A DNA stretch of 16,007 nucleotides from positions 1-16,007 of the forward strand of contig CAZBPC010000076.1 in assembly GCA_964493715.1 (NCBI GenBank), in the 5' to 3' direction. Source of the DNA: an uncultured archaeon (lineage in GTDB: Archaea; Asgardarchaeota; Lokiarchaeia; Sigyniarchaeales; SOKP01). Positions within the stretch are counted from its first letter, which is position 1. Each line of letters starts with the position of its first letter. Below are positions 3,147 to 8,146 of the stretch, one piece after another. Made by a program: the position numbers and the translations under genes. Below the pieces are notes generated by a model. The model saw only the letters and a list, made by a program, of their open reading frames with translations. It was not told the DNA's origin and did no database searches.

Positions 3147-5460
3147 TTACGATTTCTTGTATAAAAATCTCTCCCAACTTGCACTTTTTGGCATTTCTAG
3201 AGCCATTCCCTTCCGTTTTCGAATTTCCATAATCAGGTCTTCTTCGATGCTTCCAGGAACCTTTTCAAACCCTAAGAATTCGTATCCGAAAAATGCTCTC
3301 CCTTGAGTTGATCCTCTGATCTCATCAGCAATTCCTATTAATTCTGCTGCGGGAAGTTGTCCTTGAACACGCACGTATTCTCCTTCAGGTATCACGTTTA
3401 GGACTCTACCTCTGTGTTTATTGATAATTCCTAATACACCTGATTCTGTTCCTTGTGGTGTTTTAACGTCTATTTTCTGAACTGGTTCAAATAAATGTGG
3501 TTTAGCACTTAACATTGCCATAGAAAAAGCAGAGAAGCTCATACTAGCAATTTGATTGTATCCTGTATGTGCGGGATCTTCGTGAATGGTTAAATCAGTA
3601 AAAACGACTTTTATACCGGCAGCGGGTTCTTTTGCTAATATAGCGCCCTCTAGCCATTCTCTAAATGCTGCAGATAAATAAGATTTGATCCTATCAAACC
3701 TTTGGAGTCCGGTAGTACCATTAACTAACAGATTTCCATTGTACACATCAACAATTCGGCGTGCTTCTTTGGCATCCCATCCTGCTTCTTCACGTAATAT
3801 TTTTGCTTTGGTTTTATCATCCATCAATTCGTTGATACCTCCTCTTTCTATTAACGTTTCTGTTGTTTCATCAAGAGGTTCCATGTACATAAGCATTCTG
3901 TTATGACTATTAGAGGATTTGGTATGAAATTCCTTGCTTTTTGTTGTAATCTTTTCCCTGTAAACGATAATAGGTTCTCCAATATCAATTTTTACTTGAT
4001 TGTTAATACGCTTGGTGAGGATATCAATTTGAAGTGGATCAATGCCAGAGAGAATGTATTCCATTGATTCTTTATCAAGACGGAATTTTGCTGTTGGATC
4101 AGCTTGGAGCCATTTTCCAACTACATCTCCAAGTTTTGCTATATCATGTGGATCTTGTGCTTTAATGCTTCGTGATACTACTGCTTCACAAGCATAGCTA
4201 ATTTTTTCAAATGATGGAAGCGCTGCTTGTGCTTCTTTATCTCTTGGTACATCATTAGCATTTAAAAATGTTTCACCAGAGGGACAAATAAAACCATAAA
4301 TTGCGAATAAATTTCCCGCGGGAATTTTTTCAACATCTAATATATCGGTGATTTCCATCACTCCAAGTCGTTTAACTCTATTTGACGTTCTACTGCCAAC
4401 TAAATAAATTGAGTCTGTATGATGAAATGTACCAGAAAATACTCTACCAATAAGGGTTGCTTGATAATTCTTCTTTGGATCAAGAAAAATTTTAGTAATC
4501 ATTCCATAGAGAGGGCCATTAGGATCACTTGCTACAAGAGCTTTCCCTAAATCAGAATCCAAGTCTCCACCCCAAATGTGGGGAATTCGATATTTTGCAG
4601 CAGCTGTTGGGTTGGGTAGATGATCTACAACCATTCTCAACATTGGTTCATCTAATGGAAGATTATCACGTAACCATTGAATATTTCCTTCATTATATTT
4701 TTGAAACACATCTTGAGGTTTTAATCCTTTTTCAAGTAAGATTTCATAAGTGAAACCCCAACCGTGTTTAGCTGAACCTACAGCAACGCTATTCTTTGAA
4801 AAATCGACGCCCCAATCTGAACCTTCAGGACGAATTTTTTTAATTAAATCATTTACTTGCATTGAAATTTTATCAATTTTTTCAAATGTTGCTTGAGGAG
4901 TGAGTTTTAGTTCACTTATTAAGCGATCCACCTTGTTAATAAATAACACGGGCTTACAATACTCTTCTCCTACAGCAAGTCTAATATTTGTCTCAGTTTG
5001 TGTCATGACACCTTCAAGAGCATCAACTAAAATAATAGCACCATCAGAACCCCGAAGGGCTCGTGAAACTTCTCCCGTAAATGAGATATGTCCGGGTGTA
5101 TCATTAATCTGGAAGATATAGGGCTCTTTGTCTTCAGGTGTTCGCGAGTCTTCGAATGAAAGCAAAACAACAGACGTGAAGATTGTGATTCCTCTGGCTT
5201 GCTCCTCTTCTTTCAGTAAAATAAGTAATTCTTATTCTAAATCTGAATCAGTCATTTGGAGCTGACCAGCATCTTCTTCTCTCATTAAACCAGCGCGACG
5301 CAAGAGATAATCTGAAGCTGTAGTCTTCCCATGCTCTAGTTTAGAGACTAATTGTCCTTTAAATATCTATGTGGGCGACTATAGAAAAGATTCTCTTTTT
5401 TTCAAAGTTCGTACTTGTTACCATGCGGGCGATATCTTCAGGGTTTTTTACTTTAACCAT
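3147..5460 (-). CDS. Archaeal elongation factor 2 family GTPase, probably the aEF-2 paralogue. Spliced: complement(join(3147..5210,5241..5333,5365..5460)), 750 aa
   Basis: Exon 1 encodes MVKVKNPEDIARMVTSTNFEKKRIFSIVAHID. Exon 2 encodes HGKTTASDYLLRRAGLMREEDAGQLQMTDSD. Exon 3 encodes EEEQARGITIFTSVVLLSF...DTPGH...NKVDR...GSAKHGWG...GRVFSGT...HEDPAHTG...IRKRKG. The ORF-track entry (3147..5165) lacks G1 and G2. Confidence 0.92.
5211..5240 (-). other. Candidate BHB-type mRNA intron 2 (30 nt) in the EF-2 switch-I region
   Basis: Minus-strand sequence TTAGAATAAGAATTACTTATTTTACTGAAA lies between TDSD and EEEQARGITI, with an in-frame TAA at 5232-5234. Fold: perfect 4-bp central helix TCAG/CTGA; bulges AT|T and AA|G; 9-bp intron stem TAGAATAAG/CTTATTTTA (one G-U); loop AATTA; distal exon stem CTGGT/GCCAG plus GCTCC/GGAGC. 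Confidence 0.88.
5334..5364 (-). other. Candidate BHB/BHL-type mRNA intron 1 (31 nt) in the EF-2 G1 motif
   Basis: Minus-strand sequence ATTTAAAGGACAATTAGTCTCTAAACTAGAG lies between the GAT (D) and CAT (H) codons of AHIDHGKT. It shifts the frame and has an in-frame TAA at 5359-5361. Fold: exon stem TAGTC/GACTA plus CCCA/TGGG; central helix ATAG/CTAG (3 of 4 bp); bulges AT|A and AG|C; intron stem TTTA/TAAA plus GGAC/GTCT; loop AATTA. Confidence 0.85.
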
Positions 5461-5466
5461 ATATAC

Positions 5467-5523
5467 TTCACTTTTTATATTATATTATATAATTCTAATG
5501 TTATGAATATAAAGAGAAGTGAA
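5467..5523 (-). promoter_or_regulatory. Putative EF-2 promoter: TATA-like TTATATAA (5485-5492) flanked by an inverted repeat
   Basis: TTATATAA is centred about 28 nt upstream of ATG 5460. The arms are TTCACTT-TTTATATT (5467-5481) and AATATAAA-gag-AAGTGAA (5506-5523). The AT-rich context lowers significance. Confidence 0.35.
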
Positions 5524-5608: not shown

Positions 5609-8146
5609 TTATAAGATCGTCCGCATATCATATTTTGGCATTATTTCATAAAATTCTGCTTGTTGTTTTAATGACCAAAATCTAGGGGCATATCCATATT
5701 TTAGAGCAGCTTTAATCATCATTCCTATACCGATATAGTTTCTCTTTTCAATTTCATTGCTAAAATTTGTAATATGACTTGTAATTCCCAAATTTGGATT
5801 TACCTCTTTCATTACCCATAATAAATTATCTGGATCATTATTAGTTTTATCAAAATCGATATGATGCAACTCCCAAACAGATCGCCCACTCTTGTACTTT
5901 TTATCTCTTCTATATATATTTCCTGTGAAAGCGTCAAACATATATTCCAATTGAGTTAGTGAATTTTTAGTGTTTCTACTTTTTTTTACAAAACCCTGCA
6001 GAGAAAATACTTGTTCTCCAAGGATGCCATCCCTTTTTTTAGACCAGTCGGAGGAATGTTTAGAATTTACATTACCATATAGCTCTAAAGATTTTCTTTT
6101 TAGGTAAGAATTATAATCAGGATATTGACTTTTAATTTCATTAACTCTATCAATTTTTTGATACACCCTAATATATGTTAAAATATCAGAATATGCTTTT
6201 TTATCAATTTTAGCTAATTTATCATTTAATATCCTAGAAATTTTTATGAAATCTCTGGGATAAAAAACTCTGTATAATTGATTTTCTCTATCGCTTAGTT
6301 TTGGCTCAATATCTATTCCAAAAAATTCAGTTAATTCATTAATGGTGGGATATTCACTTCTCCAGCCCTCTGATATCTTTAGTTTTCCTAATGCATTGAT
6401 TAAATTATCTACTAGTTTGTGTTCTTTATATTTGATAAACGATTTCTCAACAGCAATTATAAAGATACCAGAGAATCGTGCTAATGCAATAATCATACTG
6501 TCGATAAATTTTCTATCTTCTTTATTCAAAATATTTTGATTACAATAGTTTCTAATCCGTTTAAGGGTATTTTTACTTAAATCATTCCTAAAATAATATT
6601 TTGTTACTAATCCTATTGATCCATCTCCAAGAATTTCTTGCCCAATTTCAGAGAGGCTTACAAATCGATTATATTTGTTAGAAATTACTCTCTGTAATGC
6701 TTTAAATAAAATCCAGTTGGGTTTATTTTGAACATCTTTATAAGTCAAGTAATTAATTCCTAATACATTACTAGAATAATCCTTGATTTTCATCAGAATA
6801 TCTTTACGTTTATTAATATCTATTTCCATTTTATCTATTTGAAGAAAATAATCGAAAAGCATTTCAATTTTAGTTGGATGGAATGCTACTTCACTATAAG
6901 GTACACTTTTTAATTTTTGATCACTCATTCTTCGCGTAAATTCAGATCGCCCAAATTTATAGATTCCATTTTTATATGTATCAATGAATTTAGCTAATTG
7001 TGCTGCCCATGACCATTTTCCTTTATAGTTGAAGATAATAGTTTCTAATTTTTTTTCTAACTTATTTTCATATATCATATTATAAAGTTCATCCCAGGTT
7101 GAATTTACATTCTGTCTCTTCGTTATAATATGATTTTCAATTAATATTTCTCTAAGGGCGTTAGCCGGTAGAGTTTTTATTAATTGTGGAATATGAACAT
7201 TAGCCATATTAATTATTAATTTTTGGTGCTCTGTATATTCATCTATTTTAAACTCCACCTTTCTTATACGATTAACAGTATTGTTACAATTCATTATAAG
7301 TTCTTCAATATCCGATTTAGTAAATTTTTTGGTTAATCCATTTGAAAAGAAATCGAAATAAGCATTAAATCGATCAAAAGCTGTAATTTTTTGAGTAGCG
7401 TTTTCTCTTTTTTTAGTCGAATATCCAAGAACACACATGCATATTCCCATATTAAGGATAGAATCGTAAAGCGTCTTAATTTTAGAGAGAGAAATTTCTT
7501 GAGTGTTTCCAAATGAAAAAATCTCTTTTTCCGCTAGTTTATATTTTTCTAACCAGTCAGAAAGTATCTTTTTTAACTTAGGAGATGGTGGGTTAAGCAC
7601 TATAAGATCATTAAATACTTCGTGGTGGATTTTGAGATGTTTAAGCAATCGTGTGTACTGTTTTGTTATTTCTTGAATACCATCTTTAATAACCTGAAAT
7701 TTTTTAATTTTCTCAGATTTAATATCGTTTTTTAGAAATGTTAGTTGTTTTTTAGATAATTGTTTAAGATATGAATTGGAAATTGAATCTATATACTTTG
7801 AAATGATTGGAGCACCTCTTCCAGTTGTAATACAATATACCCACTTTCTAATGAAGGATTCAGTTTCTTTAGGGATTTCTTTTTTAATAGTAGAAAGCAA
7901 ATCATGAGAAGGTAAGCAAGAAATATCAAATAGACAAGAGAGAGCAGCATCTACAAAATCTACAATTCTTTCATCAACATAGACCATTGGGATTTGATGT
8001 ATTTTGCATTTTGGATATTTACCAAATCCCAGAAATCCAAGTTTCAATGGTTTGACTCTAATTATTTTTTCACATCCAAAATTAGGACAGATTGCTATTC
8101 GATCCTCCTCTACAGTTTTCCGACTTGCAATAGAACACGACTTCAT
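5609..8146 (-). CDS. Large protein with an N-terminal putative Zn-binding module and a C-terminal HNH endonuclease motif
   Basis: N-terminal CPNFGC...YPKCKIH. C-terminal WELHHIDFDKTNNDPDNLLWV...SH at about 5775-5875 matches the HHID-x4-NN-xxxNL HNH signature. Length 845 aa. Confidence 0.7.
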   Translation of the reverse strand: MKSCSIASRKTVEEDRIAICPNFGCEKIIRVKPLKLGFLGFGKYPKCKIHQIPMVYVDERIVDFVDAALSCLFDISCLPSHDLLSTIKKEIPKETESFIRKWVYCITTGRGAPIISKYIDSISNSYLKQLSKKQLTFLKNDIKSEKIKKFQVIKDGIQEITKQYTRLLKHLKIHHEVFNDLIVLNPPSPKLKKILSDWLEKYKLAEKEIFSFGNTQEISLSKIKTLYDSILNMGICMCVLGYSTKKRENATQKITAFDRFNAYFDFFSNGLTKKFTKSDIEELIMNCNNTVNRIRKVEFKIDEYTEHQKLIINMANVHIPQLIKTLPANALREILIENHIITKRQNVNSTWDELYNMIYENKLEKKLETIIFNYKGKWSWAAQLAKFIDTYKNGIYKFGRSEFTRRMSDQKLKSVPYSEVAFHPTKIEMLFDYFLQIDKMEIDINKRKDILMKIKDYSSNVLGINYLTYKDVQNKPNWILFKALQRVISNKYNRFVSLSEIGQEILGDGSIGLVTKYYFRNDLSKNTLKRIRNYCNQNILNKEDRKFIDSMIIALARFSGIFIIAVEKSFIKYKEHKLVDNLINALGKLKISEGWRSEYPTINELTEFFGIDIEPKLSDRENQLYRVFYPRDFIKISRILNDKLAKIDKKAYSDILTYIRVYQKIDRVNEIKSQYPDYNSYLKRKSLELYGNVNSKHSSDWSKKRDGILGEQVFSLQGFVKKSRNTKNSLTQLEYMFDAFTGNIYRRDKKYKSGRSVWELHHIDFDKTNNDPDNLLWVMKEVNPNLGITSHITNFSNEIEKRNYIGIGMMIKAALKYGYAPRFWSLKQQAEFYEIMPKYDMRTIL

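Follow-up and report, generated by a model that had tools for sequence, protein, structure and literature searches.

A short in-frame insert in the EF-2 gene of an Asgard archaeon is probably a relaxed bulge-helix-bulge pre-mRNA intron

The stretch analysed here (the window) is a whole 16,007-bp contig, CAZBPC010000076.1, from the genome assembly of an uncultured Asgard archaeon. Its minus strand carries a gene for archaeal elongation factor 2 (EF-2; 3147-5460) that is interrupted by two inserts, intron 1 of 31 nt (5334-5364) and intron 2 of 30 nt (5211-5240). We conclude that intron 2 is very likely a relaxed bulge-helix-bulge (BHB) pre-mRNA intron, one that would be cut by the endonuclease EndA and joined by the ligase RtcB. 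The identity of the nuclease (EndA) and of the ligase (RtcB), cutting at the phosphodiester bonds given below, and any regulatory role of splicing are points we infer. An open reading frame (ORF) listing made with translation table 11 contains EF-2 only as a 672-aa fragment (3147-5165). Translated upstream of its start, this fragment reads ...HGKTTASDYLLRRAGLMREEDAGQLQMTDSD LE* ELLILLK EEEQARGITI..., and another frame further upstream, from the ATG at 5460, reads MVKV...SIVAHID.

On the minus strand, intron 2 is TTAGAATAAGAATTACTTATTTTACTGAAA. It begins with a single nucleotide and the first arm of a 9-bp hairpin, continues with the 5-nt loop and the second arm, and ends with CTGA and AA; its third codon, TAA (5234-5232), is in frame with ...MTDSD upstream and with EEEQARGITI downstream. 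The intron strand CTGA is complementary to TCAG in the exon before it, and the geometry is the same on both sides: a 4-bp helix, two nucleotides, and the predicted cut (Table 1). All the features that the original prediction had described for this insert are present where it had placed them. The perfect TCAG/CTGA helix and the 9-bp hairpin, the latter with one G.U pair, are part of the minimum free energy (MFE) structure computed by RNAfold, which contains the central helix, a 3-nt 5′ bulge and the hairpin. A 68-nt segment folded at -16.2 kcal/mol, compared with -7.5 ± 2.46 kcal/mol for dinucleotide shuffles (z -3.54, none of 200 as good); a 46-nt segment gave a z of -3.08, and one of 200 shuffles was as good.

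The core had been called a textbook BHB, which overstates its regularity. The exon-exon outer helix adjoining the 3′ bulge comprises a single base pair, and the one further outer helix that RNAfold and RNAalifold predict is a distal one of 5 bp, GCUCC/GGAGC; we therefore class the motif as a relaxed, HBh′-like BHB and not as the strict hBHBh′ form. The relaxed HBh′ class has been described (PMC5829648). The 5′ bulge, AUU, is unpaired in both the MFE and the RNAalifold consensus, and the 3′ bulge, AAG, is present only if the weak outer helix forms. The distal GCUCC/GGAGC helix is at most a possible one: it is near-invariant, lies in coding sequence and exhibits no covariation.

The position of the splice junction is given by relatives that lack the insert. 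In all 31 insert-free genomes the exons abut with 0 nt between them and encode (T/M)D(S/T)D(E/D/A)EEQ, with the junction at D|(E/D/A). In the three nearest species (G006, G001 and G022), whose protein is 91% identical, TCAGAT runs straight into GAGGAG, and the more distant relatives read alongside them are likewise insert-free. From these abutting exons, the junction is exactly GAT|GAA, the register that BHB geometry predicts and on which the original prediction had settled. When the three exons were joined in a script, they gave a 750-aa frame with no internal stops, which aligned without a gap to the 750-aa orthologue of G001 (687/750 identical residues overall, 77/80 at the N-terminal end). 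Excision at these bonds thus restores the sequence, as expected of a BHB intron.

The N-termini of the orthologues are ATGGTTAAAG, the same as exon 1 of the window. Among 40 relatives searched, the orthologues of exon 3 are 62-91% identical (77-91% within the same genus) and free of internal stops, and exon 3 itself contains GTP_EFTU, EF-G domains II-IV and EFG_C according to Pfam. The interrupted DNA is real: a 4712-nt contig of a public DNA run matches 5038-5480 with 0 differences, although this run may be the window's own source sample. The EF-2 gene terminates in TAA, so that TAA is an ordinary stop in this organism. Recoding of the stop codon was rejected on this ground, and because it cannot account for the related inserts of 29 and 31 nt, which are frame-shifting.

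To see how far the insert extends among relatives, we ran a 130-nt DNA query with the insert at its middle against the family's 133 genomes. Insert-spanning alignments were obtained in 22 of the 133, under four of 13 genus labels, and the site could be extracted from 20 of these (one was cut by a contig end and one came without a returned locus). The insert is thus present in 19 assemblies besides the one studied here, or in 20 of the 51 genomes read at the site. Every one of the 20 copies is exactly 30 nt long and has an in-frame stop; orthologues with a translated insert and a sense codon in place of TAA, the observation that had been named as counting against splicing, were not found among them. 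An intein or other translated insertion was rejected on the basis of these 20 stops and of the frame-shifting 29- and 31-nt sister inserts. A self-splicing group I or II intron was rejected as well, since 30 nt compares with a catalytic core of hundreds of nucleotides; the window gave 0 Rfam matches at gathering score, and no tRNA gene was found in it.

Among the 17 distinct same-site copies (alignment A1), 96.4% of the pair cells of the proposed structure are standard pairs, compared with 27-48% when the partners were slid by 1-3 columns. The hairpin cells are paired in 94.8% of cases, and all four central-helix pairs are standard in 17/17 copies. Compensatory changes occur at two hairpin pairs, G-C to A-U in three copies and U-A to A-U in four; a total of seven double-change cells was reached by 0/500 shuffles. 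No change was seen in the central helix or in the four pairs next to the loop, TAAG/CTTA, in which the TAA lies. RNAalifold, applied to the copies, agreed with the single-sequence fold. We regard the covariation of the hairpin as moderate rather than overwhelming.

One copy is displaced. G066 (locus L054) has its 30-nt insert behind ACAGAT, 6 nt further upstream; CTGT takes the place of CTGA as the helix strand, all four pairs are kept, and removal of the insert restores MTDSDDE. The intron helix of this copy has been re-matched to a new exon context, which shows co-adaptation of exon and intron. The exon hexamer TCAGAT is present in 19/20 carriers, G066 being the exception, and in 11/31 non-carriers, a descriptive comparison among kin that are not independent of each other. 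Non-carriers freely use TCT, TCC, TCG, AGT, ACT or GAC at this place.

These comparisons bear on the question of whether EF-2 is simply a decayed gene here, inactivated by a small palindromic DNA element and compensated by a paralogue or by another strain's gene. Intron 2 does include an inverted repeat as well as a stop codon, the genome has a further, intact gene of the EF-2 family (contig C1, 99256-101256), and the assembly, rated 100% complete, has a contamination rating of 3.85%. However, a 30-nt insert with a covarying hairpin has been kept in 20 genomes in front of an exon 3 that is open and conserved, and the joined frame is gapless against its orthologue. There is no target-site duplication; instead, the 3′ end of the insert is complementary to the exon and co-changes with it in G066. 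The intact paralogue is only 33% identical and is without the domain-IV HxDxxH loop visible in the EF-2 of the window, and EF-2 paralogues of that class have been judged unlikely translocases (PMC6143161). Finally, the sole RtcB locus of the genome is interrupted in like manner. Decay is therefore a very unlikely explanation. The paralogue itself fits the aEF-2 paralogue of diphthamide-lacking Asgard archaea, and a tRNA-Gly gene is located just downstream of it.

Translational bypassing, in which the ribosome would hop over the 30 nt with the help of the hairpin and the stop, as in T4 gene 60 or the mitochondrial 'byp' elements, would leave the message unspliced. The insert is short enough for this (∼30 nt), its stop codon comes soon after the take-off point, and a hairpin stands at the start of the gap. 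Bypassing requires matching take-off and landing codons, though, and the codon pairs at three inserts of this genome are mismatched: GAT/AAA in EF-2, TAC/GAC in RtcB and GAC/AAA in LeuRS. What is constant is rather a 4-bp helix between exon and intron with 2 nt after it, a geometry that hopping does not need, and this helix is re-matched in G066. We consider bypassing extremely unlikely.

The genome encodes the machinery that a BHB intron calls for, namely a splicing endonuclease, probably of the type that accepts relaxed motifs, together with an RNA ligase. EndA is represented by two paralogues (208 and 206 aa), both with the N-terminal and the catalytic domain (PF01974, PF02778). Read by eye, one of them keeps what we take to be the catalytic Tyr/His/Lys pattern, and the other is without the His. 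RtcB (PF01139) is encoded at the single RtcB locus found. The EndA of Asgard archaea has been described as an (αβ)2 enzyme with an L1 loop tied to broad specificity and to cleavage of relaxed BHB motifs (PMC5829648); this description, together with the residues just mentioned, underlies our assignment of an (αβ)2 form. ARAGORN detected only 27 tRNAs in this genome rated as complete, 12 of them with introns of 11-39 nt, and many tRNA genes were probably missed because of multiple or non-canonical introns. Heavily interrupted tRNA genes have been described for some Asgard archaea (PMC11291895; bioRxiv 10.64898/2026.10.13.758758), and the present genome fits that description.

With these components, splicing of intron 2 could proceed as follows. 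In the transcript, TCAG of the exon would pair with CTGA of the intron to form the 4-bp central helix, and the 9-bp intron hairpin would stack on one side of it, leaving two bulges of ∼3 nt, AU|U and AA|G. A heteromeric (αβ)2 EndA would cut after the second nucleotide of each bulge, and RtcB would ligate ...GAU to GAA..., restoring DSD-EEEQARGITI. The in-frame TAA would halt translation of any unspliced message, and the 31-nt intron 1 would have to leave the same message. Removal at the RNA level by a different structure-specific nuclease working with a different ligase, or regulated cleavage whose main outcome is loss of the message, is suggested by the non-canonical 3′ bulge and outer helix and by the presumptive nature of EndA's role here. 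However, the spacing of helix, 2 nt and cut, which is the rule for EndA substrates, yields the correct frame at every site examined in this genome, and an EndA of broad specificity is reported for Asgard archaea (PMC5829648). We therefore think it quite unlikely that other enzymes, or a destructive cleavage, account for the insert.

Several observations weigh against a spliced BHB intron at this site. Apart from the single-pair outer helix, the MFE pairs the first A of the 3′ bulge with a U, which creates a fifth pair. The central helix is invariant among the same-site copies, so that covariation backs the hairpin only; within the hairpin no more than two pairs vary, and the count of pairs with a change on both sides was matched by 242/500 shuffles. 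Because the copies are kin, the shuffle controls overstate the support. The α and β roles of the two EndA paralogues were assigned by eye. As for expression, a run search returned 18 DNA runs that hold part of the window and two RNA runs (shares 0.08 and 0.05), and runs X19, X20, X1 and X2 were mapped. The contigs of the two RNA runs cover only 3451-4588, within exon 3, and none crosses 5211-5240 or 5334-5364; no joint was reported in any of the four runs, a result that for RNA extends to exon 3 only. Those of X20 are 90-99% alike to the window and hence derive from relatives.

The genome-wide frequency of the motif speaks on the same side. A strict scan (4-bp helix, at least six contiguous hairpin pairs, lengths of 14-110) gave 72,049 hits, of which 302 merge two open frames of at least 60 codons, with 261 expected by random placement. 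With a merging filter of at least 30 codons, no length bin was in excess, and when A was required at the first bulge position the numbers were 63 observed and 59.2 expected, again no excess. The ORF-merging filter mostly catches ordinary gene boundaries, e.g. carA/carB and DsrE/DsrE. The motif alone is not predictive genome-wide.

What separated true cases was Pfam continuity across the insert, and nothing else did; it was passed by 2/12 candidates and then by 3/4. One example outside EF-2 is RtcB, whose adjacent profile matches, 1-47 and 48-426, are 29 nt apart, the DNA reading ...GGVG-Y|29 nt|DINCGVRL. Its layout (exon TTGG-AT|, 1 nt, 9-bp hairpin, CCAA-AG|) is as in EF-2. This insert is present in 5/133 family genomes, and the exons abut in many others; its last nucleotide varies (G, A or C) and the codons are constant. 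A relaxed scan of inserts 24-40 nt long, which tolerated one mismatch, required A as the first bulge nucleotide and kept cases whose removal fuses two open frames of 40 codons or more, reduced 3284 motif matches to 43 hits. Pfam continuity confirmed inserts in the genes for LeuRS, NadE, a thiolase and uS8; these are 29-30 nt long, with a 9-bp hairpin, an exon-intron helix of three or four pairs, and a stop or frameshift. Pfam continuity is weak or absent for three further candidates of which we are unsure: a thiolase-like gene (C145:299-328; weak), VWA_CoxE (C28:34412-34441) and a molybdopterin oxidoreductase (C15:41248-41286).

All confirmed inserts are 29-31 nt long and disruptive, and their bulges start with A. 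They lie in the P-loop and before EEQARGITI in EF-2, at GGVGY|DINCG in RtcB, at PMGYD|SFGLPAEN in LeuRS, at GYFTKYGD|GGVD in NadE, and in uS8. The apparent preference for conserved motifs may in part be an effect of ascertainment, as recognition of a case favours such motifs. A blastn-short search of the genome with nine insert sequences returned each insert itself and chance matches of 16-19 nt only; a mobile sequence family was rejected, the inserts being without significant mutual similarity.

The original prediction had further proposed that more introns are hidden in this genome, including stop-free ones that gene callers would not see. The first part is borne out by the disruptive inserts in RtcB, LeuRS, NadE, uS8 and the thiolase. 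Of stop-free introns there is no sign: relaxed-motif hits in long open frames showed no excess at multiples of three, and none resembled an insertion. Specifically, hits within open frames made up 64/269 of all hits at 27 nt, 33/125 at 29 nt, 31/143 at 30 nt, 49/133 at 31 nt and 24/97 at 33 nt, so that in-frame lengths are no commoner than others.

Within the family, intron 2 appears to come and go between close relatives. We placed it on a quick maximum-likelihood gene tree of 440 EF-2 residues from 51 genomes, a sample partly drawn by similarity to the insert-bearing query. At least seven changes of state were required, a number that, coming from a gene tree and a trait-biased sample, is not a rate. 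G079 with the insert and G075 without it form a near-identical pair (end branches 0.012 and 0.015); G015 (with) and G011 (without) offer another contrast, as does the genome studied here, G000, with its insert-free neighbours G006, G001 and G022. The pattern is an indication of frequent precise loss, gain, or both.

Intron 1, ATTTAAAGG...CTAGAG, splits the P-loop at AHID|HGKT. It could form three of four pairs of a central helix (ATAG/CTAG), an irregular hairpin and the bulges AT|A and AG|C, and it shares the loop AATTA with intron 2. RNAfold of intron 1 alone did not recover this fold (z +0.49 and -0.77), and its identification therefore rests on comparison: among 57 readable EF-2 loci it is present in G000 only, and the 56 others read ..CAYATHGAYCAYGG.. 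at this place. Other members of the family are interrupted nearby. G078 (locus L047), which also carries intron 2, has a 30-nt insert 6 nt upstream of the intron 1 point (AH|ID) with the helix GCGC/GCGT, and G055 (locus L065) has a 30-nt insert within the lysine codon of HGKT with the helix ATGG/CCAT. Across the family, there are at least five insertion points within ∼120 nt of EF-2.

Among known systems, the bypass elements of T4 gene 60 and of mitochondria (byps) are similar in that a short, stop-containing hairpin insert sits in an essential coding sequence; at the EF-2 site, matching take-off and landing codons are missing and the exon-intron helix is conserved instead. XBP1/HAC1 splicing (IRE1 with RtcB or Trl1) resembles the process proposed here in the protein-only removal of a very short mRNA intron, 26 nt in XBP1, in cuts defined by structure, in RtcB-type ligation and in an unspliced product that is different or truncated. 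It differs in that IRE1 recognizes twin stem-loops rather than a BHB, and in being a regulated stress switch.

The closest precedent is the cbf5 intron of Crenarchaeota (Desulfurococcales and Sulfolobales; Watanabe, 2002; Yoshinari, 2006; Yokobori, 2009, PMC2738675). It too belongs to hosts whose EndA is hetero-oligomeric, has a patchy distribution with losses in particular lineages, and misleads gene callers. Here, by contrast, the host gene is EF-2 and the lineage is Asgard, not TACK; a single gene has two introns, relatives have several alternative insertion points within ∼100 nt of EF-2, and at least five further genes of G000 are interrupted; and whereas splicing of cbf5 has been shown experimentally, the EF-2 intron is known from sequence alone. 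According to Yokobori (2009), pre-mRNA splicing had at that date been confirmed for no gene besides cbf5 (PMC2738675), and the pre-mRNA references in a 2025 structural paper are still those for cbf5 only (PMC12397907). A full-text literature search, its scope being papers outside subscription and without their supplements, retrieved no description of BHB introns in protein-coding genes of Asgard archaea.

Archaeal tRNA and rRNA introns, including the abundant non-canonical tRNA introns of Asgard archaea (PMC11291895; bioRxiv 10.64898/2026.10.13.758758), share with the EF-2 intron the presumed enzymes and the motif, a 4-bp helix between two 3-nt bulges with relaxed forms allowed. They are also alike in size range (11-39 nt for the tRNA introns of G000), in repeated gain and in the lack of a detectable sequence family. 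In EF-2, however, the host RNA is a message whose reading frame must survive, and codons constrain the part of the motif that lies in the exon. As far as their accessible text goes, the two Asgard papers just cited treat tRNA genes only.

Taken together, these data make it more likely than not that EndA-type mini-introns of ∼30 nt are dispersed, as an evolving population, over protein-coding genes of this Asgard family. Judging from the comparisons above, near-identical species appear to differ by gains of such introns, by shifts of a few nucleotides and by precise losses. The kind of intron is known from cbf5; new here are the multi-gene scale, the Asgard host and the evidence of gain, sliding and loss. 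Should genomes of the lineage closest to eukaryotes carry several of these introns each, what had been an oddity would become a phenomenon. It would amount to 'genes in pieces' that do not depend on a spliceosome, in archaeal relatives of eukaryotes. Expression of the translation apparatus and of an RNA ligase would then depend on the tRNA-splicing machinery, possibly as a checkpoint that links RNA-splicing capacity to translation. With RtcB, the presumed finishing ligase, itself interrupted, a dependency loop would arise in which its own message needs splicing. On the practical side, gene callers will label EF-2, RtcB, LeuRS, NadE and uS8 as truncated, frameshifted or pseudogenes in these genomes, and such calls distort Asgard metabolic reconstructions, marker-gene sets and protein phylogenies. 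The contrasts in presence and absence, the copy displaced by 6 nt and the three further insertion points within the same 100 nt make gain, sliding and loss in protein genes directly testable.

Table 1. Features of the window and of interrupted genes elsewhere in the same genome (G000). Positions without a contig prefix refer to the window.
Feature	Position	Strand	Description
Window	entire contig C76 (16,007 bp)		assembly of 3.68 Mb, 31.3% G+C, 160 contigs
EF-2 exon 1	5365-5460	minus	32 codons, MVKV...SIVAHID; ends in the middle of the G1/P-loop motif AHID|HGKT
EF-2 intron 1	5334-5364	minus	31-nt frame-shifting insert between GAT (D) and CAT (H)
EF-2 exon 2	5241-5333	minus	31 codons, HGKTTASDYLLRRAGLMREEDAGQLQMTDSD; no start codon of its own before residue 17
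EF-2 intron 2	5211-5240	minus	30-nt insert with in-frame TAA
EF-2 exon 3	3147-5210	minus	687 codons and TAA stop; begins EEEQARGITI
Central helix, exon strand TCAG	5243-5246	minus	then AT (5242-5241), nucleotides 1 and 2 of the 5′ bulge; predicted cut after 5241
Central helix, intron strand CTGA	5213-5216	minus	followed by AA (5212-5211); predicted cut after 5211
Hairpin h′	5217-5239	minus	TAGAATAAG (5239-5231), AATTA loop, CTTATTTTA (5225-5217); 9 bp, one G.U
Possible distal outer helix, 5′ strand GCUCC	5258-5262	minus	prediction by RNAfold and RNAalifold
Possible distal outer helix, 3′ strand GGAGC	5201-5205	minus	prediction by RNAfold and RNAalifold
RtcB insert	C2:12136-12164	minus	29 nt; locus L074/L103
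LeuRS insert	C44:26027-26056		tRNA-synt_1g 4-46, then 48-135
NadE insert	C39:8748-8777		NAD_synthase 3-143, then 144-242
Thiolase insert	C28:23007-23036		Thiolase_C_1 14-49, then 52-143
uS8 insert	C26:4049-4077		both halves match one Ribosomal_S8 domain

The surroundings of the EF-2 gene are archaeal in kind, the window also encoding aIF5B, an archaeal CCA-adding enzyme, UvrA and HAD hydrolases, and the closest public EF-2 loci belong to metagenome-assembled genomes, mostly titled 'Promethearchaeota archaeon' (Asgard archaea). Directly upstream of EF-2 lies an 845-aa ORF (5609-8146, minus strand), whose sole Pfam signal is a sub-threshold HNH_3 near the C-terminus. Two contigs of the DNA run X1 stop at 5231-5235, within intron 2, one on each side, whereas a contig of X2 passes through; the break at 5231/5235 could be a population sequence variant or a detail of assembly. 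Finally, at locus L093 (JBHLOJ010000021.1) the match to EF-2 exon 3 exceeds the query by ∼174 nt, and an additional in-frame stretch occurs around query residues 151-175.

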